From positions 5,594 to 69,593 of the forward strand of contig CAIMWN010000018.1 of the NCBI GenBank assembly GCA_903845155.1: DNA of 64,000 bases, read 5' to 3'. Positions within the stretch are counted from its first letter, which is position 1. The number at the start of each line of letters is the position of its first letter. Under the pieces are notes generated by a model that searched no databases, was not told the DNA's origin, and saw only the letters and a program-made list of their open reading frames with translations. Both the position numbers and the translations under genes were made by a program. The stretch comes from Oligoflexia bacterium. GTDB lineage: Bacteria > Bdellovibrionota > UBA1018 > CAIMNF01. Of this stretch, positions 25,562 to 44,966 are shown one piece after another.

Positions 25562-27900
25562 GTGTCGGGAATAGTATTCCTCATGATTCAGGCTTGGGTC
25601 ATGTCTGTGGCGAAAGTGTTTTTATTGATGATCGTGCTGAAACTCGTGGTGAAGTACACGTGGGCTTAGTCTGTAGTTCCATTGCGTGCGGTGATTTAAT
25701 TGAAATAGATGCAAGTGAGGCACTCAGGCATCCCGATTGTTTAGGGGTATTTACCGCCAAGGATTTCGTGCATAAAAAATGGGGAACCATTGTCCATGAC
25801 CAACCATTTTTGGTGGAAGACAAAATAAATTATATGAGTGAGCCCGTTTGCATTGTGGCTAGCCGCACACGGGATTCCATTGAAGCAATTAAACATTTAG
25901 TGAAGTTACAGGAAAAAGCGGCAGCAGGTATTTTTACCATTCAAGATGCCAGGAAAAATCAGTCTGTGATTTACCGCGCACTGAAGCCTTTTGTACAAGG
26001 AAACGTGGATCAAGCATTGAAGATGGCCCCTCATAAGCTCACCGGAACGTTTACGGTGGGTGGGCAAGAACATTTTTATATGGAATCGCAAGCGGCGGTG
26101 ATTTACCCACTTGAGAATGGGCAACTTGAAATTCATTCATCAAGCCAACATCCCAGTGAAACTCAGCGTACCGTTGCCGAGGCTTTAGGTTTATCGCTTC
26201 ATCAAGTGGTGTGTGTGGTGAAGCGTATGGGCGGGGGTTTTGGTGGCAAGGAATCTCAGGCAGGCCCTATTGCGGCTTATGCTGCATTGGTCGCTCAAAA
26301 GTTAAAGAAACCTGCTCGACTCATTCTCACTAAAGATGAAGACATGAAAATTACGGGAAAAAGACACCCTTTTCAGAATGAGTACGAAGTCGCTTTCGAC
26401 GATGACGGTAAAATTCTAGGAGTGAAGGTACTACTTCAATCAGACGGAGGAGCGTACGCGGATCTTTCTGCCTCTATTCTCGATCGGGCGATGTTTCACT
26501 TCGATGGAGTCTATTATTTAGAGAACGTGCACATCGATGCTGTTTGTTATCGAACGAACAATCATTCGAATACTGCATTCAGAGGTTTTGGTGGTCCACA
26601 GGGAAACATGACCATGGAAAGCATTATCGAAGATATCGCACATTTTTTGAAAAAGGATGCAGCCGTCGTGCGACTTCGAAACCTTTATCAAGGTCCGAAC
26701 GTCAAAACCCCGTACGGACAAAATCTTGAAAACAATATGCTGCCTGAGATTTTTAGACAACTCATCACTACTTCGGAGTATGAAAAGCGCCGAGTGGAGA
26801 TTGATAAGGAAAATCTAAAAAAAACAGGGGTGCTTCGCGGGATTTCCATCACCGGCACAAAGTTTGGAATAGCCTTTACTGCGCGTTTCCTTAATCAAGG
26901 GAATGCCCTCGTCAATTTGCATTTGGATGGGACTGTACAGGTGAGCACTGGTGCGACTGAAATGGGCCAAGGCGTGAACACTAAGATTCAGCAAATCGTA
27001 GCGCATGGTTTTGGGATTGAATCCGGATCAGTTCAAGTGATGACGACTTCTACAGAGAAAAATCATAATACCTCGCCTACGGCAGCATCCAGTGGTTCTG
27101 ATATTAATGGGGCGGCAGCGCTGAAAGCGGTAAACAAGATTAAGGTGAATTTAATAGGGCTTGCTCGTAAGAAATTCGCCGGTGAAGTGAGTTCCGCATT
27201 GAAAGAGTATGAGTTAGAGCAGAACGCGGAAACCGTGCCTTTAGATCCGAATTTTATCTTTCAACATGGTAAAGTAGTGGAACTTTCCACCAAAAAGGAA
27301 ATCTCTTTAAAAGAGCTCATTAGCATCGCTTATCAAAATCGTGTTTCTTTAGGTGCCTATGCACATTTTAAAACTGGTGGCCTTGGGTTTGATAAAGAGA
27401 AAGTGGAAGGCAAAGCGTTCAATTATTTTACGCAAGGAATGGCCGTGAGCGAAGTTTCTGTTGATGAATATACCGGTGAAGTGAAGGTTTTACGTGTAGA
27501 TCTATTGATGGACCTGGGTCGTTCTATTAATCCCGGTATTGATCGCGGGCAAGTGGCGGGAGGCTTTGTGCAAGGGATGGGGTGGGTCACTACTGAAAAT
27601 CTTTTTTACGATGAAAGACGAAATCTTATTTCTCATTCTCCGACTACTTATAAAATCCCAAATATTCAAGATACGCCACGCGAATTTAATATTCATTTTA
27701 TTGAAAACCTAAATAACGACTGTAATGTGTACGGTTCAAAAGCCGTGGGGGAGCCACCACTCTTGTTGGGGTCAAGTGTGTGGACAGCCGTAAAACATGC
27801 GCTCAGTTATCGGTCGAAAAGCAACATGGTAAACCTCACATCTCCTGCGACGGGCGAAGTGGTGTTAATGGAATTGACTCGCTTAAAGAGGAGCCCTTGA
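25558..27900 (+). CDS. xdhB: Xanthine dehydrogenase molybdopterin-binding large subunit
   Basis: 780 aa; aldehyde-oxidase/xanthine-dehydrogenase a/b hammerhead and MoCo-binding blocks (GGGFGGKE, GQGxxTK). Confidence 0.9.
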   Translation: MSVGNSIPHDSGLGHVCGESVFIDDRAETRGEVHVGLVCSSIACGDLIEIDASEALRHPDCLGVFTAKDFVHKKWGTIVHDQPFLVEDKINYMSEPVCIVASRTRDSIEAIKHLVKLQEKAAAGIFTIQDARKNQSVIYRALKPFVQGNVDQALKMAPHKLTGTFTVGGQEHFYMESQAAVIYPLENGQLEIHSSSQHPSETQRTVAEALGLSLHQVVCVVKRMGGGFGGKESQAGPIAAYAALVAQKLKKPARLILTKDEDMKITGKRHPFQNEYEVAFDDDGKILGVKVLLQSDGGAYADLSASILDRAMFHFDGVYYLENVHIDAVCYRTNNHSNTAFRGFGGPQGNMTMESIIEDIAHFLKKDAAVVRLRNLYQGPNVKTPYGQNLENNMLPEIFRQLITTSEYEKRRVEIDKENLKKTGVLRGISITGTKFGIAFTARFLNQGNALVNLHLDGTVQVSTGATEMGQGVNTKIQQIVAHGFGIESGSVQVMTTSTEKNHNTSPTAASSGSDINGAAALKAVNKIKVNLIGLARKKFAGEVSSALKEYELEQNAETVPLDPNFIFQHGKVVELSTKKEISLKELISIAYQNRVSLGAYAHFKTGGLGFDKEKVEGKAFNYFTQGMAVSEVSVDEYTGEVKVLRVDLLMDLGRSINPGIDRGQVAGGFVQGMGWVTTENLFYDERRNLISHSPTTYKIPNIQDTPREFNIHFIENLNNDCNVYGSKAVGEPPLLLGSSVWTAVKHALSYRSKSNMVNLTSPATGEVVLMELTRLKRSP

Positions 27901-27902
27901 GC

Positions 27903-28703
27903 ATGGAACAGAGTCTCCCTCAGTTTTGCGAGCGCTTTTTAGAGCTTTATCAAAATAAAACTCCGATGGTAGTCGTGACCCTAACCGATATGGTAGGACA
28001 TGCACCGCAAGATGTAGGCGCAAGAATGATCGTCGGAACGGACGAAATTTATTTCGGGACCGTGGGCGGCGGTAAGCTTGAAAAGCGTTGTATTGATTTA
28101 TCACGCGAGTTTCTAACATCAAAAATTCCAATTAAAAATCAGTCCCATCAATGGAACCTGCCACGCGATATTGGAATGACTTGCGGTGGAGAGGTGACCC
28201 TTTATTTTGAAACTTATAAACCTGAAGAGACGTGGAAGATTGCAATCTTTGGTGCGGGACATATTTCTCAGGAGTTAGTCCCCATATTGCTAAAATTAAA
28301 TTGTGAACTAACCGTCGTTGATCCGAGGCCAGAGTGGTTAAGTCGATTGCCCCATTCTCCTCGTTTGAAGAAGATTCAAGAAGAGAATATGCCGCTAGTG
28401 CTAGAGACTTTAGATTCGAACACTTTTGTTGCCATCGTGACCATGGGGCACGCGACCGACTACCCATTGGTGAAGCTAGCACTTGAAAAACATCATTTTC
28501 CCTATCTAGGAGTCATTGGAAGTAAAGTGAAGAGAATTAAAATGAACGCAGATTTGATAGCGAGCGGAATTCCTGAAAAGCTAGCTAAAGAGGGATTTTA
28601 TTTACCCATGGGTGAAGATTTCGGCAGAAACACACCGGCCGAAATTGCCTTAAGTATTGTGGCGCAATTGTTGAAAACAAGAGATCAGCTCTTCAATCCG
28701 TAG
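27903..28703 (+). CDS. xdhC: XdhC-family molybdenum-cofactor insertion chaperone
   Basis: XdhC/CoxI N- and C-terminal Rossmann-like halves (VVVTLTDMVGHAPQDVGARMIV...GGG...IFGAGHISQELV). ATG 27903 with SD aagaggag is preferred to the ORF-track start at 27780, which would overlap xdhB by 120 nt. Confidence 0.8.
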   Translation: MEQSLPQFCERFLELYQNKTPMVVVTLTDMVGHAPQDVGARMIVGTDEIYFGTVGGGKLEKRCIDLSREFLTSKIPIKNQSHQWNLPRDIGMTCGGEVTLYFETYKPEETWKIAIFGAGHISQELVPILLKLNCELTVVDPRPEWLSRLPHSPRLKKIQEENMPLVLETLDSNTFVAIVTMGHATDYPLVKLALEKHHFPYLGVIGSKVKRIKMNADLIASGIPEKLAKEGFYLPMGEDFGRNTPAEIALSIVAQLLKTRDQLFNP

Positions 28704-31700
28704 ACATGCATGCGGTTGATGCCGCCGTCCGGATATACCGTTACTTTGATTTGCTTAAATTCCTGTGAAGAGTGAATTCTAAATTCTATTTTATTCCCAG
28801 CATATGCTTTCACATTGGTTTTGGGAACGAGGATGTTCCATTGATCGCCGCCTGAAAGTGTCAGACCCTGAAGACTCAACTCAAAGGGATTATTGTTTCT
28901 AAAAAATGTAAAATCAATTTCAATGCGATGAATTTGAGAAGGGCGCCCCAGTTCAACAGTTACTTCTTCGAAGTGTCCCTTCGTTCTGCTTCTTGCTGAC
29001 TCGGATCCATCAAACATATTTACCGGAGGATAAGGCGAGATCATTTGCACTGCAGGACTGTAATGTTCGTTCGTGGCACCCGTAATTTTTCCTCCATAGG
29101 CGAGGCATGCAAGATCTACCTCAGCACCTTCAGGTAAGCGATCCCAATTCTGTTGAATGGTAGTAGGTGTGGCATTGTATTTGGGTGTCAGTGGCCGCAC
29201 CGGGTGCGGAATGGGATCAGGAAAAAGAATATTCTTTGCTTGATCTAATGGCTGAAAGTTAATTTTATCTTGTTCGGGCAGTGATTCATTAAATAGGCCC
29301 ACACGCGACAAGCCCCCGTCTGGATACATGGATACGCGAATAGTTTTGTAGGTGGTGTCATCCTTTGCGAGTTGCACTTGCTTTAAAGAGTGACCTTCTA
29401 GTTTCAATTTAGGTAAGATTACTTTCCACTGGTCTGATCTAATATCTAGGCCTTCAATCGTGACGGCCTCGGGATGATTTCCTTGATGAAATTGAGTAGA
29501 GAGTGAAACAAAGTGGATTGGAGAAGGTTTCTTCAATTGAAAGGTAAGACTGTCTCGAGGGTCGTGTGCAGGTTTGTAATTATGTCTGACGCTCTCCCAG
29601 CTATCCATGATTTTCCCCTGACGGCCATACAGTTCGGGATCAAATATAGGAAGGTTCGGCGACAAAAGGTTTTCAGCTCGTGCAAAACGCTCGTTGGTGA
29701 CCTCCAGTATTTTACTTCCTACCGCTAAGTTGAAGGGAGCCAGTGGGTCGGGCGTTCCTTTGATGGTGATTGCTTCTGGCTGGTCTGGTTTAAACGCTTC
29801 AAAAATAAGCCTTTTGTAGCCTAAATTCACTATTTCTTCCTGAGGAATGCTTGAGGTGTCGAAGTCAGATTTGAAAAGGGTGGTGTCCACTCCTTGAAAA
29901 TTGAGCTCCTTTAAAATAAGTTGTGCGGCCTCTGCAATAAACAGAACGCCTTTTGTGTCTGCATTGCACAGGATAACAAAGCCGAGTCCTCGATCTGGCC
30001 CCGAAAAACATTGAACAAAGAGACCACGAAAACCATCATTTGCTCCTTGATGAATGGCGAAGCGATTTGGGCCCGCTTCAGCAATAAAAACACCTAATCC
30101 AATATTCACTCCCATGAACTTCTGACTCAAGCGATCTTGGTCACCCAGCATCTGTATCGCCGTATCGTGCGAAATAGGACCTGAGCCCTTGATTGAATGG
30201 AAACTCTCGGTGAGCTTGCTTAAAAATGAAGCCATGTCTGAGGCAGTACCCATAGCACCGGCTGCAAAAGCTGGAAACTTCTTGCGGGTGCCTTTGACGG
30301 GCTCGCCTGAATCCAAATAACCATGAGCATAGTCAATGCCGGGAATTGTATTTTGCTCAAAGCTTAAATGGTGAAGCCCCAGTTCTTTGAAAAAATCTTG
30401 GGTCATTTCTTGAATACTCTTTTGTTCTAGTGATTCCAAGAGATGCTCGAGCACCAAGAACCCTCCGCCTGAGTATTGAAACGCAGAACCCGGTTCATGA
30501 AGTACGCCCACTTTGGGATATCCGTATTTTTGGTTGCCACTGAGAAGTTCCGAAATGCGAGGCATGGGCTCGTCCGCGGGAATCCCATTCACATAGTGCA
30601 TGTTTAATGCATTATGCTTCATCAGGTTTGCAAGTGTCACTTGGTTAGCCCACTCTGGACTATTTTTGTCCAAGGATTCTAATCTAAATGAAGAAGTGGA
30701 CTGTTCAAAAACGGAATTAACAGGAGTCGAAAGCGAAATGCCATTCTTTCTAAAATACTCAAGTGCAAAGGCGCTTGCCATCGTCTTGCTTAAGGATGCA
30801 AGCTCAAACCAAGTGTGCTCACCAACTCGTTCTTTCCCTCGCTGGCGATCACCAATGCATATGTTTTGTTTCGTCGTCAACGAGGTATTCACCGTGATGG
30901 TGGCGCCATTGACTTGGTAGCGAAGAAGTAATTGATTTAACTTTTCATGAAGATTTAAAAACGGCAGTTTCTTCAGCCTCTTGAGGCTGATTTCCCATAA
31001 AGCATTTCTTGCTTGAACGAGCTCCAGTTCCTGGGTGCTTTGTAAGCGCGTATTTAAATCAGCAAGTATCTCGGCGCTCGATTTTCCTTCTGCAGAAATG
31101 AGGTACTTAAACCCAAACTTCTTCAAGTAGCGGTCGCCCAATGCACGAAGTTCGGCCTGTGTCTCGGCGCCAGCTTTTAAAACAAGTGCTTGTTCTTGAG
31201 ATGCGACTTCATCGAGAGTTTTCTTGCTTTCGCCAATATTCCCGTGAAAGCTTGCGGCATGAAGGATGTCATCTAGGGTAAAGTTTTTTATAATCGTTTC
31301 AGCCTTCACCAAATCAACCGTGAGGTCAGAAGCAAGCGGGTGGGCAAACGAAACGCTTCCGCATATAGAAAAGTATTCGTTAAAACGTTGAATGTAATCT
31401 GTGCATAGAAACTTCTCAGGATCCAGTTTAGTCACGACATTCCAAGGGTCGCTTTCATTTCTGATTGACTCGACAGTAAACGGCAGTAAGAGTTCAGTTG
31501 CGAATTCGGGAGGGTGGGAACTTGTCATGAGTTTGATCATGATTTTCATTGCGATCCCGTACCATTTTTCAGTTCTTTCATCCCATTTCACTTGAACGAT
31601 TTTCTGAGCGTTCGATAAGTCTTTCCGAATGAAGAGCATTTCCTCATGAATAATTTTCAAGAATGCATCGATGCTAAATCGCCCATGATGAATCTCGTGC

Positions 31701-33433
31701 CAAACTTCCCAACGCGAGCGCTCCGCAGTGGCGAGGTCATCCATCACTCGTACAGAAACTCCATTGATGGTTGCAGGAAGTGCAACGCAGCCACGGCCTG
31801 ATAGCCAGTCGGTAAGGTACTGGAGTGATTGAAATACATTATAGCGGATTTCTTCGCTGTCGTTATTCGCTATAAATGGTGATTCCTTCATGTCGGCTAC
31901 AATTAATGACCGAGGATAGAGTGGGTGATGAGTGTCGAGGCCCACTATGTCTTTCCCGTGTATAAAACTCATCATGTCAGCGTGGTGCTCTTTTACTAGT
32001 AAACCTTCCACCATTTTTTGAAGAGGAGCAGAATCATTTTGTTGATGAAGTTCCCATGCGCGAACCAAGGCGAGTCCAATGCGAATAAAGTCTGGGTGGG
32101 CGACCCAAAAACCACTCAAGCCGCGCTTAAGCTGTGTGATCACATCTCTCATAAAACCTTTAATCGTCATTTGAAATGAGGCGCTCAGGCGATCATCGTC
32201 GATGGAAAGAATGCCATACATGCCGCCAATCTTAATCCCACCTCTTGAGCCCACCACTTCAGTGAGAAGATCGTGTGAGGCTTTGATGCATTTAATTACA
32301 ATATTCGGATCAGCCTTTACGGGAATTCGATAGTTTGAGTCCTCTCTAAATAAGCGTGCCGTTGAAGCGAGGTAGTCATGCCAACCAAGAGATGCACCAG
32401 CGAAGTAGGGATAGAGTGCGTCCATAATCTCATTCACGCGAAAGATCGCACGCGGATTTTCTAAAACGAGGAGTAAACGGATACTGCCCAACTTGTACGC
32501 GGAATGACGATTTTTGAGGAGTTTTTCTGTCGTTTCCACCATGTGATGAATGTAAAGAGCATCTTCTTCATTTTCTAGCTTGGGCACATAGAAGGTGAGG
32601 GCGGCTTCGTTTTCCCAATGTTTAAAACAATGGAGAGCAAAATCGTATAAGTGTAAAGGGATTGGTTGCTCACGGTAAAATAAGAAGGTGCAAGGCAGCG
32701 CGAGACCCGGAAAGCGTTTAATAGGAAGGGTGAGCCGTTCGCTTTCAATTTTGTAGGTTTTGTTATTTTTTGAGTCTGTAAAGCTTAAGCTCTGGTCGTA
32801 ACAGGCGTTCAGATTCATTGCTGCCGCGATTAAATCCTGTCGGATAGGCGTTTTTGAATCTTCATCATCCGCGCCCCATTTAGGAAGATCAGTGCTAGTT
32901 TCAAGCAATTCAGAAATAATGCTCGGTTCATCTTTGAGTTTACGATGAAAGGCATTCATCGCGTTGATACAGAGTTTTGCGTTATCGGGTGGACCAAAGA
33001 GAGTAACGTGATTTCCGCTCAAGTGCTTCGGAATAGGCGCAATGGGTTTGCCATAACCGCGTGTGCAGTAGTGTTCGTTTTTCGGCCCAAGCACAGTGCG
33101 GCCGTTTCCGTCTTCGTGGCTGATGACGGTTTCATATCGTGGATCCAGTAAATCAATTCCGAGTGTGCGATTGAGTTCGCTGCAAGCGCGCGTTCGTTGA
33201 TCAATAAATTGTCGATCTTGAGTGCGTTGAGAGAGTGTTGCAGCCAATTGCCCTTTCACGCCATCGTAAAGTTCGCATAAAAACTGAAGCGAAGATTGGG
33301 TCTCAAGGCCTCCACCTTTGCCTACTTCGCGAAGTTCAGGAATATTCGTAACGGGCTGGCTCTCAGCCAATAACTTGGAAAGAAGGGCCGGAGTAATATA
33401 ATCTTGATAATAGGGGATCTCTCGCTGTTTCAT
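28685..33433 (-). CDS. Four-module purine-catabolism fusion protein: malate-synthase-like / OHCU decarboxylase / serine beta-lactamase-fold hydrolase / allantoicase (two repeats)
   Basis: Uninterrupted 1582-codon ORF. aa 1-640 match malate synthase A blocks (VTLFGPPDNAKLCINAMNA; IRLLLVLENPRAIFRVNEIMDALYPYFAGASLGWHDY; FWVAHPDF). aa 650-825 match OHCU decarboxylase (SFHGNIGE; KKFGFKYLISAEGKSSAEILADLNTRL). aa 840-1180 carry SxxK (ASLSK), YxN (HYVNG) and HxG (IHQGANDG) of the beta-lactamase/PBP fold. aa 1200-1582 carry two allantoicase repeats (MDSWESVRH; GSESARSR) each ending YPDGG...R. ATGA-coupled to hiuH upstream. Confidence 0.8.
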   Translation of the reverse strand: MKQREIPYYQDYITPALLSKLLAESQPVTNIPELREVGKGGGLETQSSLQFLCELYDGVKGQLAATLSQRTQDRQFIDQRTRACSELNRTLGIDLLDPRYETVISHEDGNGRTVLGPKNEHYCTRGYGKPIAPIPKHLSGNHVTLFGPPDNAKLCINAMNAFHRKLKDEPSIISELLETSTDLPKWGADDEDSKTPIRQDLIAAAMNLNACYDQSLSFTDSKNNKTYKIESERLTLPIKRFPGLALPCTFLFYREQPIPLHLYDFALHCFKHWENEAALTFYVPKLENEEDALYIHHMVETTEKLLKNRHSAYKLGSIRLLLVLENPRAIFRVNEIMDALYPYFAGASLGWHDYLASTARLFREDSNYRIPVKADPNIVIKCIKASHDLLTEVVGSRGGIKIGGMYGILSIDDDRLSASFQMTIKGFMRDVITQLKRGLSGFWVAHPDFIRIGLALVRAWELHQQNDSAPLQKMVEGLLVKEHHADMMSFIHGKDIVGLDTHHPLYPRSLIVADMKESPFIANNDSEEIRYNVFQSLQYLTDWLSGRGCVALPATINGVSVRVMDDLATAERSRWEVWHEIHHGRFSIDAFLKIIHEEMLFIRKDLSNAQKIVQVKWDERTEKWYGIAMKIMIKLMTSSHPPEFATELLLPFTVESIRNESDPWNVVTKLDPEKFLCTDYIQRFNEYFSICGSVSFAHPLASDLTVDLVKAETIIKNFTLDDILHAASFHGNIGESKKTLDEVASQEQALVLKAGAETQAELRALGDRYLKKFGFKYLISAEGKSSAEILADLNTRLQSTQELELVQARNALWEISLKRLKKLPFLNLHEKLNQLLLRYQVNGATITVNTSLTTKQNICIGDRQRGKERVGEHTWFELASLSKTMASAFALEYFRKNGISLSTPVNSVFEQSTSSFRLESLDKNSPEWANQVTLANLMKHNALNMHYVNGIPADEPMPRISELLSGNQKYGYPKVGVLHEPGSAFQYSGGGFLVLEHLLESLEQKSIQEMTQDFFKELGLHHLSFEQNTIPGIDYAHGYLDSGEPVKGTRKKFPAFAAGAMGTASDMASFLSKLTESFHSIKGSGPISHDTAIQMLGDQDRLSQKFMGVNIGLGVFIAEAGPNRFAIHQGANDGFRGLFVQCFSGPDRGLGFVILCNADTKGVLFIAEAAQLILKELNFQGVDTTLFKSDFDTSSIPQEEIVNLGYKRLIFEAFKPDQPEAITIKGTPDPLAPFNLAVGSKILEVTNERFARAENLLSPNLPIFDPELYGRQGKIMDSWESVRHNYKPAHDPRDSLTFQLKKPSPIHFVSLSTQFHQGNHPEAVTIEGLDIRSDQWKVILPKLKLEGHSLKQVQLAKDDTTYKTIRVSMYPDGGLSRVGLFNESLPEQDKINFQPLDQAKNILFPDPIPHPVRPLTPKYNATPTTIQQNWDRLPEGAEVDLACLAYGGKITGATNEHYSPAVQMISPYPPVNMFDGSESARSRTKGHFEEVTVELGRPSQIHRIEIDFTFFRNNNPFELSLQGLTLSGGDQWNILVPKTNVKAYAGNKIEFRIHSSQEFKQIKVTVYPDGGINRMHVYGLKS

Positions 33434-33753
33434 GTGCCTCGATAGGTGGAGTATCCAAACGGGTTCAGTAAAAGTGGAACGTGATACTTTCGTTGAGTGT
33501 TTTCTACTTTAAAGATAACGGGTATGTCTTGGAAGAAGCATTCGGTAGATTTATTTTTAAAATAGTTTTCAATCTCAAAAATGATTTGATAAATCCCAAC
33601 ATTCTTTTCGATATCAAAGGAAAATCGGCCGTCCGCATTGGTCGTTCCCGCAGCGAGAGTGGTCCATTGGCCGCCATTTTTGATGAGCAACTTCACGGTG
33701 ACTCCAGAGGCAGCGGTTCCGAGACTCGTATCTAAAATATGAGTGCTGATCAT
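33430..33753 (-). CDS. hiuH: 5-hydroxyisourate hydrolase (transthyretin-like)
   Basis: 107 aa. N-terminal STHILDTSLGTAASGV and C-terminal ...YRGT (HIUase signature is YRGS). Confidence 0.8.
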   Translation of the reverse strand: MISTHILDTSLGTAASGVTVKLLIKNGGQWTTLAAGTTNADGRFSFDIEKNVGIYQIIFEIENYFKNKSTECFFQDIPVIFKVENTQRKYHVPLLLNPFGYSTYRGT

Positions 33754-33756
33754 TTC

Positions 33757-35366
33757 TTACTCCTTCTTAAACGAAAAATCTAAATTAATGGTTTCATTCT
33801 CTTTGACGGAAACTTTTTTAGACTGATTGCCAAATACTTCATGCCACGCTTCAAGGGTGTATTCACCTACGGGGATGTTCTTGATGATGAACTCTCCGGC
33901 ATCATTGGTCACGCTGTAAAAGGGATGATCCATTACTGCGATCGATGCACTCATCCAAGGATGTACGCTACATTTCGTCTGTACAAAAATCTCAGGGTGA
34001 TTGAAAATCTTGGTGACCCGATCATCTTTGCTTGGCATCGCAACATTGAAATTCTCATTCTGACTGGTGATTGATTTCACATTGTGAAATGTCGCATCGC
34101 TGTTGATGAAATCCACCTTTTGCCCCACACGTACGGCAATGACTCGAGGTTCATATTGGCAATTTTTTTGATCCAGAATTGCCGCTACGGCAGGCACGTC
34201 ATGATATTCTTTGCCTTCAAGGCCCTTCGAGATTCGGACAAGGACGTTTTTTAGTTTTCCATTGTTGATCATGATGTCGTTGGCGTAAGTGTCGCTTTTA
34301 TTTTGTTGTGCACAAATGAGTGGAAGTTGAAGTTTCTCACCGTGAAGTGCGGGACCATTAAACAGAGCTAATCCTTTAATGGTGCCAGTGGGGCCATTCG
34401 CTGCAGCCGATGGTTCAGTTGCTGGTGTATTCGTTGCAGTTGCTGCAAGGGGTGCCGAGTTCTCGTGGGTAAAGAAAATCACGCCAATGATCAATGCAAC
34501 TCCCACTAAACCAAACGCTTTAGATCGAGGTGGATTCTTTAAGCGCACCACGAAGAATTCCCGAATGGCTGCTCCCGCTGCACTCATTAACAAAAGAATG
34601 ATCCAATTGTATTGGTTTCCGTAAGTGGACGGAAAATGATTGCTGAGCATGATGAAGATCACGGGAAGCGTGAAGTAGGTATTATGGGTAGAACGATTTT
34701 TTGCGTTTTTCCCCCATTCCTGATTCACGGGCTCGCCTCTTTTAGACGCTTCCACCATTTTCAATTGGCGAGGAATAATGCGTAGAAAAACGTTGGCCGT
34801 CATCCAAGTACCGAGCATGCCGCCGATATGAATATAGGCAGCTCTACCGCTGAGTGTATGGCAGAGAAAATATGCCATCCCGCCAAACCAAAGGAGGGTG
34901 AGGGCGTGCGCAAGAACCGGAGTGGTTTTTGAAAATTTGGATTCCCATAAAAAATCATAAAAGAGCCAAGAACCCACCAGTGAGATGACACTCAGACCAA
35001 CCGCCTGAAAAAACGTAATGTGAGAGAGACGGAAGCGTCGAGAAGAAAAGTGCCACTTCCGGCGTAGAAAATCATGCAGATCAAAAAAATTCCGCTGAGC
35101 CAGGTCCAGTATGACTCCCATTTGAACCAATGGAGTGATTCAGGAACTTTGGTAGGGCCCATGAGAAGTTTCTCTACGTGGTAAAATCCACCACCATGAA
35201 CCATCCACAACTCACCCACATGTCCGTCTTTTTTTGATAGCTCATTGAACTCAATGGTGCGATCCAGCCACATGAAAAAGATGGAAGTTCCAATCCACGT
35301 AATGGCGACGGTAATATGAAGCCAGCGTCCTAGTAAAAGTAGCCAATCAAATAACTCTTGATCCAC
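33757..35366 (-). CDS. puuD: PuuD-like integral-membrane urate oxidase with C-terminal cupredoxin (type-1 copper) domain; apparent +1 frameshift in an A6/T6 run
   Basis: The N-terminal 124-aa ORF (GTG 35366, SD gagggg) reads WLHITVAITWIGTSIFFMWLD...GELWMVHGGGFYH...LHWFKWESYWTWLSG, as recalled for the Urate_ox_N/PuuD family. The membrane domain continues in another frame (ORF 33757-35130) after the run at 35009-35014. One extra base joins ...SVSLTLRFF|QAVGLSVISL... seamlessly. The C-terminus has His-x37-Cys-x2-His-x2-Met (FHNV...CSVHPWM), an amicyanin-like copper site, with no CxxCH. Confidence 0.5.
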
Positions 35367-35433
35367 AAATATCCCCTCATTTTGATGTTTTCAGCATATT
35401 GAATTTGAGCTGAAAGTACAGTACTATTTCTCG

Positions 35434-36753
35434 ATGCCCGGGCAAAATTACCGCTTCTTTCTCGCTAGTATTTTAAATCCAAAAAACGACACCAAGTGCG
35501 ATTATTTTGCGCATGGGATGTTGGTCGTTTGCGATCAGGGTAAACAGAGCTTCATTGAGGCCGTTCTCCCGTTCAATAAGGGCATGAAAAAATACTCAAG
35601 ACTCATGACCACCGCCAATACCACTGATTTTGGGAGTGCGGTGATCATGCCCGGATTCTTTGATATGCACTTTCATTGGGTGCAAGATGATGTTCGCACG
35701 CAACCCAAGGACTCTCTGCTTGAGTGGCTTGAAAAGTATACCTTTCCCGCTGAAATGAAATTTGCAGATCCAAAATATGCTGCAAGTGAGGCCAAGATTT
35801 TTTTCAAACGCTTGAGTCGAGTTGGCACATTGGGTGGCGCTTGTTATAGTTCTATTCACGGTCCGGCGCTGGAGTGCGCGATGAGTGAAGTGAAGGGGGA
35901 TTTCGTCATTGGGAATGTGCTGATGGATCAGTTTTCTCCGCCTGAGCTTACTCAGACGGAGGCTGAGGCAATTGCGCTCACCAAGAAGATGATTCGAAAG
36001 TTTGGGAGGAGATTTGCGTTTACCCCTCGCTTTGCAATCAGCACCTCGCCAGCGCTGATGAAAAAAGGAAGTAAGCTTGCCGACCAAGCTCATTGTTTTA
36101 AACAAAGTCACTTGTCAGAAAATCCGGCAGAAATTGAATTTGTTTTGAAACTCTATAAAAAGTTACCGGGTTACAAAAAGTGTTCCTCTTATACAGATAT
36201 ATACAAAAAGACAGGAATGCTCGGCAAGCGTTCACTGATGGGGCATGGTATTCATCTTTCCAGTGCAGAATTAAAAATGCTCCATGAAACAAAAACCACG
36301 CTCATTCATTGTCCAACCTCGAACGCGCCGATTCGAGAAAAGGGTCTTGGTTCTGGGCTTTTTGATTTCAAACGGGTTGAAAGAGCGAAAGTGCGTTGGG
36401 CACTTGGTTCCGATATTGGTGGCGGCCCCTTTTTATCGATGTTTGATGTGATGAGAAGTTTTGTGATTCAAAATAAGCGAGCCAAGGTGAAAGGTGCCAC
36501 TTTTGTAAAGGCGTTGTACCGTTCCACGCTCTCGGGTGCCGAGGTTTTTGGAATTGCTGCAAAGACTGGAAATTTAAATCGGAAGAAGGAAGTAAATTTT
36601 ATCGTCGTGCCGTTGAATGCTTCAAAGCCCCCCCATTCCGCGGAGGATGCATTGAAGCGCATTATCAATGCCCCAAAGGCGAAGCGAGAGTTGTTTGATC
36701 AGCTGCCGAGCGTAGTTTACTACCGCGGCAAACCTATCGTGAATCAAGCGTAG
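35434..36753 (+). CDS. guaD: Guanine deaminase
   Basis: Collinear with E. coli GuaD: PGFFDMHFHWVQ, SLLEWLEKYTFPAE, FTPRFAISTS, HLSENPAEIEFV, HCPTSN, LGSDIGGG. Confidence 0.85.
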   Translation: MPGQNYRFFLASILNPKNDTKCDYFAHGMLVVCDQGKQSFIEAVLPFNKGMKKYSRLMTTANTTDFGSAVIMPGFFDMHFHWVQDDVRTQPKDSLLEWLEKYTFPAEMKFADPKYAASEAKIFFKRLSRVGTLGGACYSSIHGPALECAMSEVKGDFVIGNVLMDQFSPPELTQTEAEAIALTKKMIRKFGRRFAFTPRFAISTSPALMKKGSKLADQAHCFKQSHLSENPAEIEFVLKLYKKLPGYKKCSSYTDIYKKTGMLGKRSLMGHGIHLSSAELKMLHETKTTLIHCPTSNAPIREKGLGSGLFDFKRVERAKVRWALGSDIGGGPFLSMFDVMRSFVIQNKRAKVKGATFVKALYRSTLSGAEVFGIAAKTGNLNRKKEVNFIVVPLNASKPPHSAEDALKRIINAPKAKRELFDQLPSVVYYRGKPIVNQA

Positions 36754-36838
36754 CTAAATCAAGCTTGATTACACTGCCTATTCTTGCACTGCTACTCACA
36801 CTTCGGTTCGTGTCTCAGAGTGAACCCTGCCTATTGTT

Positions 36839-37876
36839 TTAGAATTTAATATTCCGAACGTAGTGACAACTATATCCTTTTTTGCCCTTTTTCTCTAAAT
36901 CAGCAAGATAGTTTTGATGATGCTCTTCTGCTCTCCAAAATTTGGTAAAAGGCACAATTTCAGTGACGACAGGCGCTTTCCATACTTTGGCGGTTTCAAC
37001 ACGCGCTTTCATTTTTATAGCAGCATTCTTTTGGGCTTCGCTCTCATAAAAAATGGCGGAGCGATACTGACTGCCAATATCGTTCTCTTGTCGATCTTTG
37101 GTGGTTGGATCATGCATTTTAAAAAAGAGGACTAGTAAGTTTTCGTAAGTCGTCACCTTAGGATCAAAAAGAATTTGAACTGATTCTGCATGTCCGGTCG
37201 TCCCGCTGGATACGTCTTCGTAACTCGGGTCAGATTTAGTGCCACCGGTGTATCCGGTTTGAGTTTCAATGACTCCGGGTTGGGTTTGAAGTAAATGTTC
37301 CATTCCCCAAAAACAGCCTCCTGCGAGGGTTGCAATTTCCCAGTGCTTCTTTTTGGCAAACATAAAAAGGAATCTCCCATTTCCAGTTTCTTTGAGTTTA
37401 TCGAGAGGTATGAATTTCATCGCTCCTGAATTGATGCAGAACCGTTGCCCACCTTTGTCTTTTGGTCCGTCATCAAACACGTGTCCCAAATGAGAGTCAG
37501 AACTGCTCGAGAGTACTTCGTTTCGATCGTCGAGAAGCGAGGTGTCTTTTTTAATGTTCACTTTTTTGTCGGTAATCGGTCTGGTAAAGCTTGGCCAACC
37601 GGTGCCCGAATCATACTTATCGATCGAACTAAAGAGGGGTTCGCTCGTTACGAGATCGACGTAAATGCCATCCTCGTGGTTGTTCCAGTAGGCATTATGA
37701 AAGGGTTGTTCCGTACCTGCCTCTTGCGTGATGCTGTATTGTTCAGGAGTGAGTTTCTTTTTCAGTTCGCTTTTCGATGGAAGGCCGCTTCCAGAGAAAG
37801 CAAAGAGGGGGAGGATGACTGCTGCTGCAACTAGTATTGTTTTAATTAATCTTTTTTTCATATTTACGCTCCACAA
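36839..37876 (-). CDS. msrAB: Secreted bifunctional methionine sulfoxide reductase MsrB-MsrA
   Basis: Signal peptide. MsrB block (GTGWPSF...RFCINSGAM) followed by MsrA block (GGCFWGMEH). Confidence 0.9.
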   Translation of the reverse strand: MWSVNMKKRLIKTILVAAAVILPLFAFSGSGLPSKSELKKKLTPEQYSITQEAGTEQPFHNAYWNNHEDGIYVDLVTSEPLFSSIDKYDSGTGWPSFTRPITDKKVNIKKDTSLLDDRNEVLSSSSDSHLGHVFDDGPKDKGGQRFCINSGAMKFIPLDKLKETGNGRFLFMFAKKKHWEIATLAGGCFWGMEHLLQTQPGVIETQTGYTGGTKSDPSYEDVSSGTTGHAESVQILFDPKVTTYENLLVLFFKMHDPTTKDRQENDIGSQYRSAIFYESEAQKNAAIKMKARVETAKVWKAPVVTEIVPFTKFWRAEEHHQNYLADLEKKGKKGYSCHYVRNIKF

Positions 37877-37958
37877 TGTACTACGATTGCGTTCGAAAAG
37901 GGTTACAGAAAAAATAATTTATATTAAGTTAAAAAAACTTGAGTCGTGAAAATGACAC

Positions 37959-38360
37959 TTAGGGCACTTTGCTGAGGTTCTTATAAACTGTTTCGAGTTT
38001 TTCCCTTAACGTCTCGCGGGTAAAGGGCTTTGTGATGACTGCATTGGCCTCTTCGATTACGGATTCTGCAACATCATTGAGTTCCGCTTCGGTCACCATG
38101 AGTACCAGAGGTATAGATTTAAAGCGGCTGTCAGTTCTCATTCTTCTTAAGAGATCGATCCCATCGGCAATAGGCATGGTTAAATCGGTAATAATAAGGT
38201 CGTGCGGAGGATTGGCTTCTTGCAAAGCCTGCCAAGCGACGGTTCCATCAGACGCTTCAGTGATATCGGTAAAACCGATCTCATTGCAGGCCTTAATGAT
38301 GATTTTTCTCATCATGAGCATGTCTTCAACTACGAGTAGTTTTGTTTTTGAACCAAACAC
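37959..38360 (-). CDS. Single-domain CheY-like response regulator
   Basis: Receiver domain (LLVVED...DLIITDLTMP...KPF). A perfect SD gaaggagg lies inside the ORF-track N-terminus, 6 nt before GTG at 38360. The true start is therefore probably 38360 (MFGSKTKLLVVED...), not 38384. Confidence 0.8.
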   Translation of the reverse strand: MFGSKTKLLVVEDMLMMRKIIIKACNEIGFTDITEASDGTVAWQALQEANPPHDLIITDLTMPIADGIDLLRRMRTDSRFKSIPLVLMVTEAELNDVAESVIEEANAVITKPFTRETLREKLETVYKNLSKVP

Positions 38361-38420
38361 GGCCGTCCTCCTTCGTGACTTCATGATAACGTATTTTTCT
38401 AAAAATGCGATAGTTTAAGC

Positions 38421-38466
38421 GATCCAAAATTTTGGATCAGTTTTGGATCAACTTGATCCAAAACTG
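38421..38466. promoter_or_regulatory. Array of four GATC-containing half-sites forming two abutting perfect palindromes (operator-like)
   Basis: gatccaaaa|ttttggatc (38421-38438, 18-nt perfect palindrome), then cagttttggatcaa-c-ttgatccaaaactg (38438-38466, 29-nt perfect palindrome). It lies 60-110 nt upstream of the response-regulator start and overlaps a possible -35 (TTGGAT). Confidence 0.5.
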
Positions 38467-38565
38467 CTTGTGCTCACTTCACTCTTCCGTTAGCTTGCGC
38501 TTCAAGAGCAATGATTTCAAAGCAAGCTTTGGAAACTAATTATTGAAAATTAATAAGGGGTAACC

Positions 38566-39117
38566 GTGAAGAAAATTAAGTTAATGGTCATAGTTTGTCT
38601 ATTCATCACCATCAATGGATACGCGCAGTCGCAGCCCAAGATTCCGTCTTGCGACTCAACAAGATTAAACACGGTTTTCCCATGTTCTGTTGTTGCTGAT
38701 GAATCAGACCAGATTTTGCGCACTATGATGCTGAACAATTTAAAAGCCTTAAAGCGTGTGGCGAACGGGCCGACCGTAAACCCTGGATTTAATCAATACC
38801 GAGTTTCGTTGCTGGCAGAAAAGCAAAGGCCCGGTCATGGGCCCGGTACTTACCGGAATCGCTCAGTTTATAAAATTCAGATTCTGATTCAAAGTCGAGA
38901 TCATGGGCCAGCACCCGGAACCGAACCGTCCTTATTGACCGTGTTCGTGAATGAGCTTTCTTCTACACAGGGCGCTCAAACAAAATACGAATCGCAGTTA
39001 AAAAAATTGACCAATCACGAGGTGGGTAACGTTGGCAATCCAAGGTTAGAAGAAATTCCAGTAATTGAAACTTTCGATCCAACCGAGAGAATGATTGCTG
39101 AGGGTTTCGAATACTGA
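38566..39117 (+). CDS. Secreted hypothetical protein
   Basis: Signal peptide MKKIKLMVIVCLFITINGYAQ. Pro/Gly-rich middle. No known domain. Confidence 0.45.
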   Translation: MKKIKLMVIVCLFITINGYAQSQPKIPSCDSTRLNTVFPCSVVADESDQILRTMMLNNLKALKRVANGPTVNPGFNQYRVSLLAEKQRPGHGPGTYRNRSVYKIQILIQSRDHGPAPGTEPSLLTVFVNELSSTQGAQTKYESQLKKLTNHEVGNVGNPRLEEIPVIETFDPTERMIAEGFEY

Positions 39118-39171
39118 CTCTGGGAGTAATGAAAATTTAGAAATTAACTTACGAATAAAATAGGAAATCTT

Positions 39172-39570
39172 ATGAGAAATCTAACTATGAGCATGATCGT
39201 TTTTTATTGCGTATTTCAATCGCCTGCGATGGCCGAGTCGAAATCGGTGAAATTAGACTACGAACAATCTTGGGTAACAAATGCGTTAGTGCAAGCTACA
39301 CTCAAAACAAAAGCTGCAAAAATCTTTAGCCAGTATTCTGGTTTCGATGAAATTACTGCAAAGTTTGAAGAGCAGGGGCGATACACGACTCTTACCATTG
39401 AAGCCAAAGGAATGTACCTCTATCAAGGTGATATCGCCTGTGGTGAACTAAGGTTGAACGTTGTGGAGAGAGTGAAAAGTAGTCCGGGGCTATCTTCAAC
39501 TGAGTATACAGCTACTTTGGATCGCAGTGGGTTATTCCCATCACGTCATTGCCAAATTAATGAAAACTAG
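39172..39570 (+). CDS. Secreted hypothetical protein
   Basis: Signal peptide MRNLTMSMIVFYCVFQSPAMA. No known domain. Confidence 0.4.
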   Translation: MRNLTMSMIVFYCVFQSPAMAESKSVKLDYEQSWVTNALVQATLKTKAAKIFSQYSGFDEITAKFEEQGRYTTLTIEAKGMYLYQGDIACGELRLNVVERVKSSPGLSSTEYTATLDRSGLFPSRHCQINEN

Positions 39571-39685
39571 TGTTTGGCATTCCTTAACGGGAACGCTTAA
39601 GAAAAAGTCAACGGACGGTAAGTTTACATAAATTTCTCGAAATGGTGCTAGAGCGGCACTTGGCACTGTTAATAATTTAAATCAT

Positions 39686-39723
39686 TTGACACATGACCAT
39701 ACTGTAACTATAATCGTTACAGT
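39686..39723 (+). promoter_or_regulatory. Consensus sigma70 promoter (TTGACA-17-TATAAT) with an 8-bp inverted repeat bracketing the -10 box (candidate Rrf2 operator)
   Basis: TTGACA 39686-39691, 17-nt spacer, TATAAT 39709-39714. actgtaac (39701-39708) / gttacagt (39716-39723). SD aaggag at 39737-39742 and gst ATG at 39748. Confidence 0.5.
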
Positions 39724-39747
39724 TATAAATTTAACAAAGGAGATTTT

Positions 39748-40374
39748 ATGAAACTATATTATTCTGCAGGTTCATGTTCAACTTCATGCCATATTACTTT
39801 AGAAGAGTCAGGACTGAAATACGAAGCGGTTGAAGTTGATTTTGATAATGCTACTGATCCAAATGTTGCGCTGGTTGGTAAGTTGAATCCACTGGGAACG
39901 CTCCCTATTTTCATCACTGATGATGGCAAACAATTGGATCAAAACATTGCGATTCAAACCTACATTGCTGATAAGGCGGTAGGGAAGAATCTTCTGCCTT
40001 CTGTGGGCACCATTGAACGTGCTCAAGCAATGAATTGGTTGTCTTTTGTGTGTTCAGATTTACACAAAGGAATTGGGGCTTTATTTGGTGTTTCCTACAT
40101 ATCAGAAGATAAAGCAGTGCAACAGCAAGTGAGATCTTTTTTAGTCGGCAGAGCCACTGAGTGCATTGCTTACTTAGATGCAAAGCTTGCGGGCAAAGAA
40201 TACCTGATGGGAAGTACATTTATTCCCGCAGATGCTTACGCATTTGTAGTTTTAGGCTGGACTAAATATCTTGATATTCCACTTGCGCCCTATAAAAATA
40301 TTGAAGCGTATATGGCTCGAGTTGCTTCACGTCCGGCAGTGGCAGCGGTTCTGAAGGCTGAAGGTCTGGTATAA
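39748..40374 (+). CDS. Glutathione S-transferase
   Basis: MKLYYSAGSCS...LPIF thioredoxin-like N-domain plus helical C-domain. About 208 aa, like bacterial Gst. Confidence 0.85.
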   Translation: MKLYYSAGSCSTSCHITLEESGLKYEAVEVDFDNATDPNVALVGKLNPLGTLPIFITDDGKQLDQNIAIQTYIADKAVGKNLLPSVGTIERAQAMNWLSFVCSDLHKGIGALFGVSYISEDKAVQQQVRSFLVGRATECIAYLDAKLAGKEYLMGSTFIPADAYAFVVLGWTKYLDIPLAPYKNIEAYMARVASRPAVAAVLKAEGLV

Positions 40375-40390
40375 TCAGAAAGCATTAATT

Positions 40391-40810
40391 ATGGCGGAAA
40401 GTACGCGGTTCTCTGTAGCGGTTCATGTTCTTTCCGTATTAGGTTATCTTGAGCAATCTGGCGTAAAATTAGTTTCATCTAGCCAGATTGCTCAAAGTGT
40501 AAACACCAATGCAGTGGTGATTCGAAATTTAATGAGCGCCCTTAAAAAGGCCAAGCTGGTTCGATCTAAAGAGGGAAAGAATGGTGGCTTGTATTTAGCA
40601 AGAAAGCCTTCTCAGATTTCACTTCAAGAAATTTATTCCGCAGTAGAGACTGAAGGTGTTTTAAGTTCCCACCAAAAACCACACTTTGCCCCCTGTCCCG
40701 TGAGTCGTGGAATGAAAAAGGTTTTTCTCAATGTTTCCAAGGAAGTAGATGGCGCCGTAGCCAAAGTGCTTCATAAAAAAACACTAAAGGACATCGTCGA
40801 TCAATTCTAA
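40391..40810 (+). CDS. Rrf2-family transcriptional regulator
   Basis: N-terminal winged helix (FSVAVHVLSVLGYLE...SSQIAQSVNTNAVVIRNLMSALKKAKLV...GGLYLA). 16 nt downstream of gst, so a likely gst-rrf2 operon. Confidence 0.85.
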   Translation: MAESTRFSVAVHVLSVLGYLEQSGVKLVSSSQIAQSVNTNAVVIRNLMSALKKAKLVRSKEGKNGGLYLARKPSQISLQEIYSAVETEGVLSSHQKPHFAPCPVSRGMKKVFLNVSKEVDGAVAKVLHKKTLKDIVDQF

Positions 40811-40872
40811 TTGGGATTGATTTGTCCGTAGCGATAGGTACGCGAATAAACGAAGTTGATTGATGGATCACT

Positions 40873-41718
40873 ATGATCCAAATTCCTAGTATTCCTACGA
40901 AAAACGAGCTAAACTGCGCTCCAATGAACGCCATGAATCAAATTCAACGGGTTTTGCAGAAAACCTTACTTGAGCTCCGGAGAAAGAATCCGCAATACTC
41001 AGGTCGTGCGCTTGCAAAAAAAATTGGGGTGAGTCCGGGGGCTCTCAGTGAAATCCTCAATGGAACCCGAGTAGTTTCAAGAAAAATGGCGGTGAAGATT
41101 TGTGATCGCCTTCTCCTGGACCCCATGGATAAAGCGATAGTCCTCAAATCATTTTCTGAAAAAAGAGTCACGTCGACCGAAAGTGAGGATGCTACCCACT
41201 ATTTAAAGCTCTCATCTGATCAATTTAAACTCATGAGCGAGTGGTATTATTTTGGAATTTTGGCATTCATGAAAACCGCTCATTTTAAATCAGACGTAGA
41301 TGTGGTGGCCGAGCGTCTAGGGCTTACTCGCGCGCAGGTAAATCAGGCACTCGAAAGAATGATTCGGTTAAATGTGATTCAAGTCGAAAAAGATGGAACG
41401 TGGGTGAGAGGGGAGGCCGGCCATCGCACGAGTGACGACATTGTGGATCTATCGGTGGTGAAAAGCCACTTAGAGACGCTGGAGCTGGCCAAAACGGCGC
41501 TTCAAGAACTTAAGATTGACGAGCGCGATTTCACAGCACTCACCCTGCCGCTCGACTATGAAGATCTTCCCGAAGCTAAAAAAATGATTCGAAAATTTCA
41601 AAATGAGTTCGCGGAGAAGTTTTTAAAAGGAAAAAAACCAAAAGAAGTTTTTAGAATAGCAGTTCAAGTCTTCCCGCTCAGTAAACGAGGGATGAAGGAT
41701 ATTTCAAAAAAAGGATAA
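40873..41718 (+). CDS. Member of a paralogous family (TIGR02147-like), copy 2
   Basis: Paralogue of 5279-6184 (KNPQYSGRALAKKIGVSPGALSEILNG; SEWYYFGILAFM; ERDFTALTLPLD). Confidence 0.6.
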   Translation: MIQIPSIPTKNELNCAPMNAMNQIQRVLQKTLLELRRKNPQYSGRALAKKIGVSPGALSEILNGTRVVSRKMAVKICDRLLLDPMDKAIVLKSFSEKRVTSTESEDATHYLKLSSDQFKLMSEWYYFGILAFMKTAHFKSDVDVVAERLGLTRAQVNQALERMIRLNVIQVEKDGTWVRGEAGHRTSDDIVDLSVVKSHLETLELAKTALQELKIDERDFTALTLPLDYEDLPEAKKMIRKFQNEFAEKFLKGKKPKEVFRIAVQVFPLSKRGMKDISKKG

Positions 41719-41721
41719 AAT

Positions 41722-42144
41722 ATGAAAAGAATAATGAAGTTGAGCTTATTGTTATTGTGTCTGACTGGTTCAAGCCCCTACGTTCATGCTCAAGAGCATA
41801 CGGGGAACGGGCAGCAGCAACAGGCGCAAAGGCCAAAAGTGAAAAAAATAAAAATCGTCAGAGGTAAACTAGCTGAAGAACTTTATCATTCACTATCGGC
41901 GATGAATAAGATTTCTGACTTGAGTAATATTTGCAGTGATCCAGTGCAAATGGTGAGTGGCACCGTGAGTGAACCGGTTGAAGGTGAGGCTCGCTGTTTC
42001 TTTCGCGGTAAAGATATTGATTGGGGAAGTGATTATAAATGCTACATTGAGACGCACGAAGAGGGTTCAAAGTGGAGTAGGTTCATCTATGCTTTATTTC
42101 ACAGAGACGACACCTGCGGTGGAGATGGCATTTTCCTAAAATAG
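41722..42144 (+). CDS. Small secreted Cys-containing hypothetical protein
   Basis: Signal peptide MKRIMKLSLLLLCLTGSSPYVHA. Gln-rich linker. Six Cys. Confidence 0.4.
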   Translation: MKRIMKLSLLLLCLTGSSPYVHAQEHTGNGQQQQAQRPKVKKIKIVRGKLAEELYHSLSAMNKISDLSNICSDPVQMVSGTVSEPVEGEARCFFRGKDIDWGSDYKCYIETHEEGSKWSRFIYALFHRDDTCGGDGIFLK

Positions 42145-42188
42145 CGTCGATTTTTAAACTAAAATTCATGCGTACGGGCTAGCTTTGC

Positions 42189-43157
42189 TTATTTTTTGTA
42201 AAATGCGATGGTCTGATTCAAGTCGTGTTCAAGCTCTTCAAATTTGAGTTCCTGAACTTGTGCTTGAGTTCCCTTGCAGTTGATTCGAATTTGGTGAGGA
42301 CTGTAGCTCCAGTTTGCGAAAACCAAGTCAGTCGATTTTGTCTCTGGATGGGCAGAGAATCCTAAAAACGTATATTTTGCTCCTTTTTCGTACTTGCCAC
42401 TGATAGAATCTGACTCTTGAGCAACGAGCATGCATTTCTTTCCCTCGAAAAGATGCGCGCCGGCGGGTTCGCGATAAACATTCAAATTAGCGCCGATATG
42501 AAGTTGGATGCCGTATTGGCCGGGTAGTCCTGATCCAAATAAACCGTTCAGAAAGGTACCACTCAATGCTTTTACGCTGTGGCTGGTGATGCTCTGTTGA
42601 GCATCGGATGACACTATGTTTTTAGGTAAATAGGAATGAACTTCAAAAACCCCTGATACTTGATCTTCAAAATCTTCAACGGTCCATTGTTGAAGATCGC
42701 TATGACTGCAGGATACTGAAATCTTACAGATGCTCGCGCCCTTACTTTTAAACTCTGCACTCATGACTCCGTTTTGTGAAGCAAATGCGTTGAGTACATA
42801 TTGAGATTCTGCGGGGATGGTCTCCTTTGCGCCGCTCATAAAAACACTATCATAAGCACTTACCGAATGGGGCGTGCACGATTTAGTAACCGTTCTGACG
42901 ACGCAGGAATTACCAATTTGTGCCGAACCAAATGAATCTAAGTTCACTTCTTTTTTGAACACTAAAGAGGGGAGAACTGTTGTTTGGTGATCACTGCTCG
43001 TGCTGCGATTAAGTTTTTGTAGTGAATTCATTTGAAATGAGTGTAGCAATTCAATGATATTGAATTGAGCGGGGGCTTTTGGTGATGCTAAGGCACTATT
43101 GCCGATCAGTGCTGAAACAACGATTAAGATTAAAGAAGTTTGCTGTACCATACTCAT
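42189..43157 (-). CDS. Secreted hypothetical protein (322 aa)
   Basis: Signal peptide MSMVQQTSLILIVVSALIGNSALA. No known domain. Confidence 0.5.
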   Translation of the reverse strand: MSMVQQTSLILIVVSALIGNSALASPKAPAQFNIIELLHSFQMNSLQKLNRSTSSDHQTTVLPSLVFKKEVNLDSFGSAQIGNSCVVRTVTKSCTPHSVSAYDSVFMSGAKETIPAESQYVLNAFASQNGVMSAEFKSKGASICKISVSCSHSDLQQWTVEDFEDQVSGVFEVHSYLPKNIVSSDAQQSITSHSVKALSGTFLNGLFGSGLPGQYGIQLHIGANLNVYREPAGAHLFEGKKCMLVAQESDSISGKYEKGAKYTFLGFSAHPETKSTDLVFANWSYSPHQIRINCKGTQAQVQELKFEELEHDLNQTIAFYKK

Positions 43158-43415
43158 GATAAAGCACGGAGCGTGCCACTGAAACCCACGTAAAGCAGTT
43201 CTGATGTGCCATAGGAAAAACCCGTGTCGAGACCCAGATCTATTGTCAAAAGTTTAGTCAAGGGTGTCTAAAATTTGTTCAATTATTGGGATTAAGTTGG
43301 GAACAGGTTGGGTTTTGCTAACAACTCGCTAATAAAGCGTCAGCTCTTTGTTGTTTTTTTACGAATTATGCAGATTTGCATGCAAAAGAAGTGCCGACTG
43401 CGCTAAAATGAATTC

Positions 43416-44897: not shown

Positions 44898-44966
44898 ACG
44901 TTCTTAAATATTGATGTTACAACAAGAAAATTAAAAACAATATTGGATGAGCAATGAACGCAAGTC

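Follow-up and report, generated by a model that had tools for sequence, protein, structure and literature searches.

PuuD of Agrobacterium fabrum is an integral-membrane cytochrome c urate oxidase in which a DUF989 domain is fused to a cytochrome c domain (Doniselli et al. 2015, PMC4562309). Its membrane part has eight helices, of which helices I, II, V and VI make up the conserved core (PMC4562309), and the CXXCH motif of its cytochrome c domain is strictly conserved (Doniselli et al. 2015, Sci Rep 5:13798, PMC4562309). Here we describe a related gene in a window of 64,000 nucleotides, the whole stretch of Oligoflexia bacterium DNA that was analysed. As in PuuD (PMC4562309), the product of this gene has a full-length DUF989 / PF06181 domain with eight predicted membrane helices, and its gene neighbours specify a 5-hydroxyisourate (HIU) hydrolase, an OHCU decarboxylase domain, a xanthine dehydrogenase and a guanine-deaminase-like amidohydrolase. 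Where PuuD (PMC4562309) has a cytochrome c domain with CXXCH, however, the protein encoded here has a predicted cupredoxin-like domain and a CarboxypepD_reg-like beta-sandwich. The window gene, unlike PuuD, is additionally frame-broken.

The frame break is real, but a preliminary description of this DNA had mislocated and over-interpreted it. The lesion is a gain of two base pairs that turns (TC)3 into (TC)4 and shifts the frame after Ser114; the nearby T6 homopolymer is not involved. The coordinates of all features are collected in Table 1.

Table 1. Features of the frame-broken puuD-like gene and its surroundings (window coordinates).
Feature	Position	Strand	Description
puuD-like gene, frame-broken	33757..35366	(-)	1610 nt here vs 1608 nt / 535 aa in intact alleles
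ORF A	34992..35366	(-)	124 aa, GTG start; native residues 1-114 plus 10 out-of-frame residues (LTLRFFRRLV), from profile match and AlphaFold model
ORF B	33757..35130	(-)	457 aa counted from TTG (35130); first ~35 residues out of frame, native from HITFF on (helices III-VIII and C-terminal domains)
TC tract, site of 2-bp insertion	35022..35029	(-)	(TC)4 on coding strand, (GA)4 on + strand; (TC)3 in intact alleles
T6 run (A6 on + strand)	35008..35013	(-)	wild-type length; 9 nt downstream of TC tract
U UUU UUC heptamer	35007..35013	(-)	in X XXY YYZ phase with frame A in broken allele only; first U is codon position 3
Premature TGA in shifted frame	34992..34994	(-)	10 codons past insertion
Predicted cupredoxin-like domain	33931..34197	(-)	about residues 390-478 of intact protein; sequence and predicted-fold matches
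5-hydroxyisourate hydrolase (transthyretin family), intact	33430..33753	(-)	downstream of puuD-like gene; PF00576, E = 1e-33
1582-aa fusion protein, intact	28685..33433	(-)	downstream; domain matches
Amidohydrolase (Amidohydro_1), intact	35434..36753	(+)	divergent; guanine-deaminase-like by context
Second indel	63445..63448		intergenic, between ORFs 62546..63352 and 63506..63961; C4 in window vs C5 in L089, L090 and L091

Results and Discussion

Predicted identity and fold of the product

Both open reading frames of the preliminary description are present on the minus strand as it gave them, and the addition of one T to the homopolymer does produce an uninterrupted frame of 536 aa with the junction that it had written. 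This repaired protein matches the Urate_ox_N profile (PF06181, formerly DUF989; COG3748) in one stretch, from residue 5 to residue 299 and over profile positions 3-293 of 295 (E = 6e-105, 351 bits, cut-off 26.9). The single match bears out the view that the two frames are pieces of one urate oxidase gene. Close homologues are named 'urate hydroxylase PuuD' by NCBI. As judged from the predicted product, this is a puuD-like gene for a membrane urate oxidase (PF06181).

The intact protein was modelled with AlphaFold from a 46-sequence alignment. The model, of moderate confidence (mean pLDDT 75), has eight long helices within residues 3-299 (3-35, 76-103, 118-141, 149-168, 173-208, 215-241, 253-272 and 278-299). 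A simple hydropathy scan detected part of these eight helices. The intact protein is predicted to consist, in order, of the eight-helix Urate_ox_N domain, a linker, the cupredoxin-like domain and the CarboxypepD_reg-like beta-sandwich. Its C-terminal ~210 residues, encoded at 33757..34390 (-), hold the last two of these, the cupredoxin-like part first.

The cupredoxin assignment comes from two kinds of comparison. At the sequence level, the domain matches amicyanin and a Nitrosopumilus cupredoxin with E-values of 6e-4 to 1e-2, and the His and Cys-x-x-His-x-x-Met ligand motifs are aligned. The predicted fold matches those of amicyanin, plastocyanin and pseudoazurin, with target TM-scores of 0.70-0.76 and E-values down to 1e-6. 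The candidate type-1 copper ligands, H427, C465, H468 and M471, show no variation across 46 homologues, and no CxxCH motif was found anywhere in the puuD-like protein. Among the best 120 database matches (519-571 aa), most have precomputed matches to both the membrane domain and CarboxypepD_reg-like, and many are labelled 'membrane protein/plastocyanin' by JGI. These data point to a large, mostly Bdellovibrionota clade of PuuD proteins (P0001-P0120, L005-L084) that would carry a cupredoxin domain where the described enzyme has cytochrome c. A search of one literature library returned no description of a cupredoxin-type PuuD; the one co-occurrence of the terms concerned the unrelated putrescine puuD gene. 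This exchange of cupredoxin for cytochrome c is a more interesting by-product of the analysis of this locus than the frame break.

Purine-catabolism cluster

The puuD-like gene is the first gene of a purine-catabolism cluster. The fusion protein encoded downstream combines a malate synthase-like part (TIM barrel and C-terminal), an OHCU decarboxylase (PF09349), a beta-lactamase-like domain and two allantoicase repeats, and looks like a multi-step ureide-pathway and glyoxylate-capture protein. Its gene lies directly 3' of the HIU hydrolase gene, which it overlaps by 4 nt, and is of equal length in related metagenome contigs. Xanthine dehydrogenase genes, which are intact, and XdhC adjoin the cluster. 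The start codon of the divergent amidohydrolase gene is uncertain, because gene calls on identical DNA give 439 aa for L004 but 368 aa for L001 and L002; in the 439-aa form, 67 nt separate it from the start of the puuD-like gene.

Localisation of the lesion

A join free of stop codons is uninformative on the site of the lesion, because both frames are open over 145 nt (34995..35139). Insertion of one base at any of 146 positions in this open zone gives a single uninterrupted ORF, as do 139 of the 144 two-base deletions. Three slippage-prone tracts fall within the zone, namely T7 at 35083..35089 and the (TC)4 and T6 tracts of Table 1; A/T runs of 6 or more number 159 in the window. A caution applies wherever ORFs in different frames overlap: an indel at nearly any position they share can fuse them with no intervening stop, and the choice of the nearest homopolymer is therefore a guess and not a localisation. 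The lesion could be pinned only through comparison with close relatives.

Four metagenome contigs from different samples of one ENA series (L001-L004) encode P0001, an intact protein of 535 aa. The window gene is identical to all four at 1608 of 1608 positions, and the extra TC is the sole difference; the same difference was found in the comparison with L087. At the lesion the window reads GTCTCTCTCAC where L001-L004 read GTCTCTCAC, the placement of the extra unit within the tract being arbitrary. In the window, the codons GTC TCT CTC ACA TTA CGT TTT TTC AGG CGG TTG GTC TGA specify V S L T L R F F R R L V and a stop, whereas those of the intact allele, GTC TCT CAC ATT ACG TTT TTT CAG, specify V S H I T F F Q. 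The T6 run thus encodes two native Phe residues (acg TTT TTT cag) and is present in 4/4 intact alleles. Comparison with the relatives indicates that the intact (TC)3 allele is ancestral.

The preliminary description had placed the lesion in an A6 run at 35009..35014. The run lies one base away from there. Four independent assemblies combine A6 with an intact gene, which in effect supplies the confirmation of A6 that the preliminary description had named as evidence against its reading; the extra TC alone distinguishes the window gene. The junction offered there as a fit to a continuous PuuD, SVSLTLRFFQAVG, is one residue longer than the junction of the intact protein, SVSHITFFQAVG (DASVS-HITFFQAVG), and differs from it at three positions. 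Likewise P0001, which is continuous and 99% identical to the repaired protein, contains GTFLLDASVSHITFFQAVGLSV and not DASVSLTLRFFQAVG. The T6-to-T7 repair is ruled out by the DNA of the intact conspecific alleles, by orthologue length and by a profile score lower by 9 bits. The proper repair is the deletion of one TC, which yields the 535-aa protein, and the gene should be annotated as a frameshifted puuD or a pseudogene with its lesion at the TC tract.

Orthologues

Orthologues were sought in one genome per GTDB species, and the best 80 loci were compared. Almost all are from Bdellovibrionota (Oligoflexia, Bdellovibrio, Bacteriovoracaceae), and the species of the window itself is not among them; the closest full-length orthologue is 71% identical and a partial one 82%. 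The gene is continuous through the lesion site in all of these 80 loci. The preliminary description had set its reading of a broken gene against a two-gene arrangement in orthologues, and none of the 80 is split. The distance from the invariant D110 to the SW(F/L)FYD motif is the same as in P0001 in 80/80, and the junction made by adding one T (DASVS-LTLRFF-QAVG) is one residue longer than that of every one of these orthologues.

A profile was built from the 67 full-length orthologues. It matched ORF A through residue 114 (...DASVS) and ORF B from about residue 35 (LSHITFF), so that profile positions 1-114 are covered by ORF A and 113-539 by ORF B. This switch of frame at residue 114 is independent evidence that the TC tract is where the lesion lies. 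Against the profile, the (TC)3 allele scored 976.6 bits and the one-T join 967.4 bits. At the site itself, T6 occurs in 1/80 of these orthologues, a (TC) tract of 3 or more units in 4/80 and one of 4 or more in 0/80. Neither the T6 run nor the TC repeat is conserved at this sampling of sequences.

Distribution of the alleles and divergence of the window

P0001 forms a 90%-identity cluster with two other proteins. It is itself found on 6 contigs, and the likewise intact 535-aa P0121 on one; the third member, P0122 (454 aa), is identical to ORF B called from an internal ATG at 35121 and occurs on a single contig of 72,161 bp (NCBI and ENA), evidently the source of the window. Counted by contig, seven are intact, four of them read at the DNA level as (TC)3, and one is truncated. 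Among the contigs available, the broken allele is restricted to one. A protein database look-up gave no record of the exact 124-aa product of ORF A, and a scan of JGI metagenomes gave no match to a pattern fitting either allele.

Positions 3203..64000 of the window were compared with a reference made of the 620-kb GROS21 scaffold_6 (pieces L085, L087 and L089) and L001. Over these 60,798 bp, we counted 14 substitutions, all of them transitions, and two indels, the TC insertion and the intergenic C4/C5 difference of Table 1. The reference haplotype is common to contigs from different samples; the window therefore comes from a lineage that differs slightly from it, by about 0.02%. Window and reference agree in the length of all 156 homopolymers of at least 6 nt, 38 of which reach 7 nt or more and 5 of which reach 8 nt or more. 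There is therefore no sign of systematic indel error in the assembly, and the agreement speaks against an indel-prone technology or poor polishing.

The substitutions comprise nine nonsynonymous, two synonymous and three intergenic changes. The nonsynonymous share (9 of the 11 coding substitutions) is unusually high, and the 9:2 split fits a very recent divergence in which deleterious changes are still unpurged. One window-specific nonsynonymous SNP lies in DnaG. An aldehyde dehydrogenase gene of L090 (213 + 317 aa; 3617..5171, corresponding to window 60955..62523) was considered as a second broken gene and rejected. A run of Ns with missing bases interrupts it; the split reflects a gap in the scaffold rather than a frameshift.

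Origin of the insertion

The insertion is probably a real and very recent slippage mutation, borne by a lineage, which would entail loss of function and be neither programmed nor regulatory. Replication slippage in the short dinucleotide tract would have duplicated one TC unit, (TC)3 becoming (TC)4, in the lineage behind the window contig. Translation would then leave its frame after Ser114, in the loop that the model places between helix II (76-103) and helix III (118-141), and would end at the TGA 10 codons on. ORF A retains helices I and II with the conserved cytosolic loop between them. The polypeptide would lack helices III-VIII, among them helices V and VI of the conserved core (PMC4562309), together with both C-terminal domains, the putatively periplasmic cupredoxin domain being one of them. 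PuuD function would presumably be lost, and with it membrane urate oxidation in this lineage, while the remaining purine-degradation cluster would be left intact. If so, the biological consequence is small: at most, the first step of urate degradation has recently disappeared from one lineage of an uncultured Bdellovibrionota species.

Of the causes put forward in the preliminary description, an assembly indel and a recent inactivating mutation are both still viable; slippage-prone expression control finds no support, the T6 run being a native Phe-Phe pair found in 1/80 orthologues and followed by RNA without notable structure (z = -0.63). We infer a biological origin rather than an assembly error: a real mutation is favoured because the 60.8-kb comparison gave 14 transitions, two indels and complete agreement of the homopolymers. 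An artefact of sequencing, assembly or polishing, in an organism that truly carries (TC)3, is possible but rather unlikely. It would agree with the presence of the broken allele on one contig against seven intact ones, with the complete identity of the gene to the intact one in all other respects, and with the location of the second indel in another simple tract. However, an error-prone technology would strike homopolymers of 6 nt or more before anything else, and none of the 156 differs; a dinucleotide tract of four units is not a typical error site; and the window is a distinct haplotype with 14 transitions, so that real differences, indels included, are expected. The gene is otherwise unchanged and gives no independent sign of decay, which suits a very recent mutation and an error alike. 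Even more doubtful is a functional split gene, in which ORF A, with helices I-II, and ORF B, with helices III-VIII and the redox domain, would give two polypeptides that assemble. Although both frames are long and jointly span the whole protein, none of the best 80 orthologous loci is so arranged, ORF B would open with about 35 out-of-frame residues, no Shine-Dalgarno-like sequence was seen before its TTG (35130) or ATG (35121), and sister contigs only 0.02% different carry the fused gene. We consider this extremely improbable.

Readings in which the sequence is genuine and the frame is restored or switched are scarcely more credible. Programmed frameshifting and phase variation are both unsupported, because the two repeats lack conservation and T6 is followed by no stimulatory RNA structure. 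The U UUU UUC heptamer is a fortuitous potential -1 slip site. A -1 slip there in the (TC)4 allele would give SVSLTLRFFQAVG and read through to the normal stop, the same junction as in the preliminary description; the corresponding junction peptides are SVSLTLRFFQAVGLSVISLVGSW for the slip product and SVSHITFFQAVG for the intact protein. In this way, a full-length PuuD could arise by -1 ribosomal frameshifting, programmed or leaky, or by transcriptional slippage at T6; the X XXY YYZ phase of the heptamer with ORF A and the restoration of frame by a -1 slip speak for such a mechanism. That phase, however, was created by the insertion itself, the T6 run being Phe-Phe in the intact alleles. T6 is rare and a frame break absent among the best 80 orthologues, and 0/4 conspecific contigs are split at the DNA level. 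Moreover, the 100 nt from T6 on fold no better than shuffled sequence (MFE -21.9 vs -19.9 +/- 3.1 kcal/mol), the 18 nt preceding T6 show no purine tract resembling a Shine-Dalgarno sequence, and helix III of the product would begin with three substituted residues and one additional one. We regard such frameshifting as highly unlikely. It would be equally surprising if (TC)4 were a genuine segregating Bdellovibrionota allele that is not fully null, with -1 slippage seven codons before the stop giving low-level PuuD; the result would be a self-suppressing frameshift, a full-length protein with a four-residue scar (LTLR for HIT). As for phase variation, in which the TC tract would act as a contingency repeat switching puuD on and off in the population, an in-frame (TC)3 and an out-of-frame (TC)4 do occur in one species-level population and differ by exactly one repeat unit. 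Known contingency tracts, however, are far longer than three to four units. The tract here has only that length, and it is not special, since 92 dinucleotide repeats of at least 3 units occur in the 60.8 kb compared; tracts of 3 or more units are found in few, and of 4 or more in none, of the best 80 orthologues; and the OFF allele is on 1/8 contigs. Phase variation is thus very improbable.

Comparison with known systems

The arrangement resembles the programmed -1 frameshift sites of dnaX (A AAA AAG) and of IS3-family transposases in that a heptamer of X XXY YYZ form lies shortly before the stop of the upstream frame, with the downstream ORF in the -1 frame. Unlike those sites, the heptamer found here is not conserved, neither a stimulatory structure nor an upstream Shine-Dalgarno-like element was detected, and the arrangement is absent from the best 80 orthologues and from seven conspecific contigs. 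With the contingency loci of Haemophilus, Neisseria and Campylobacter it shares a one-unit change in a coding repeat that toggles the frame, but its tract of three to four units is unconserved and not enriched over background. No feature sets the lesion apart from ordinary slipped-strand frameshift pseudogenes, with which it has in common the gain of one unit, the early stop and the intact allele in sister genomes and orthologues. It is a one-unit repeat insertion of an ordinary kind, specific to a strain or to an assembly.
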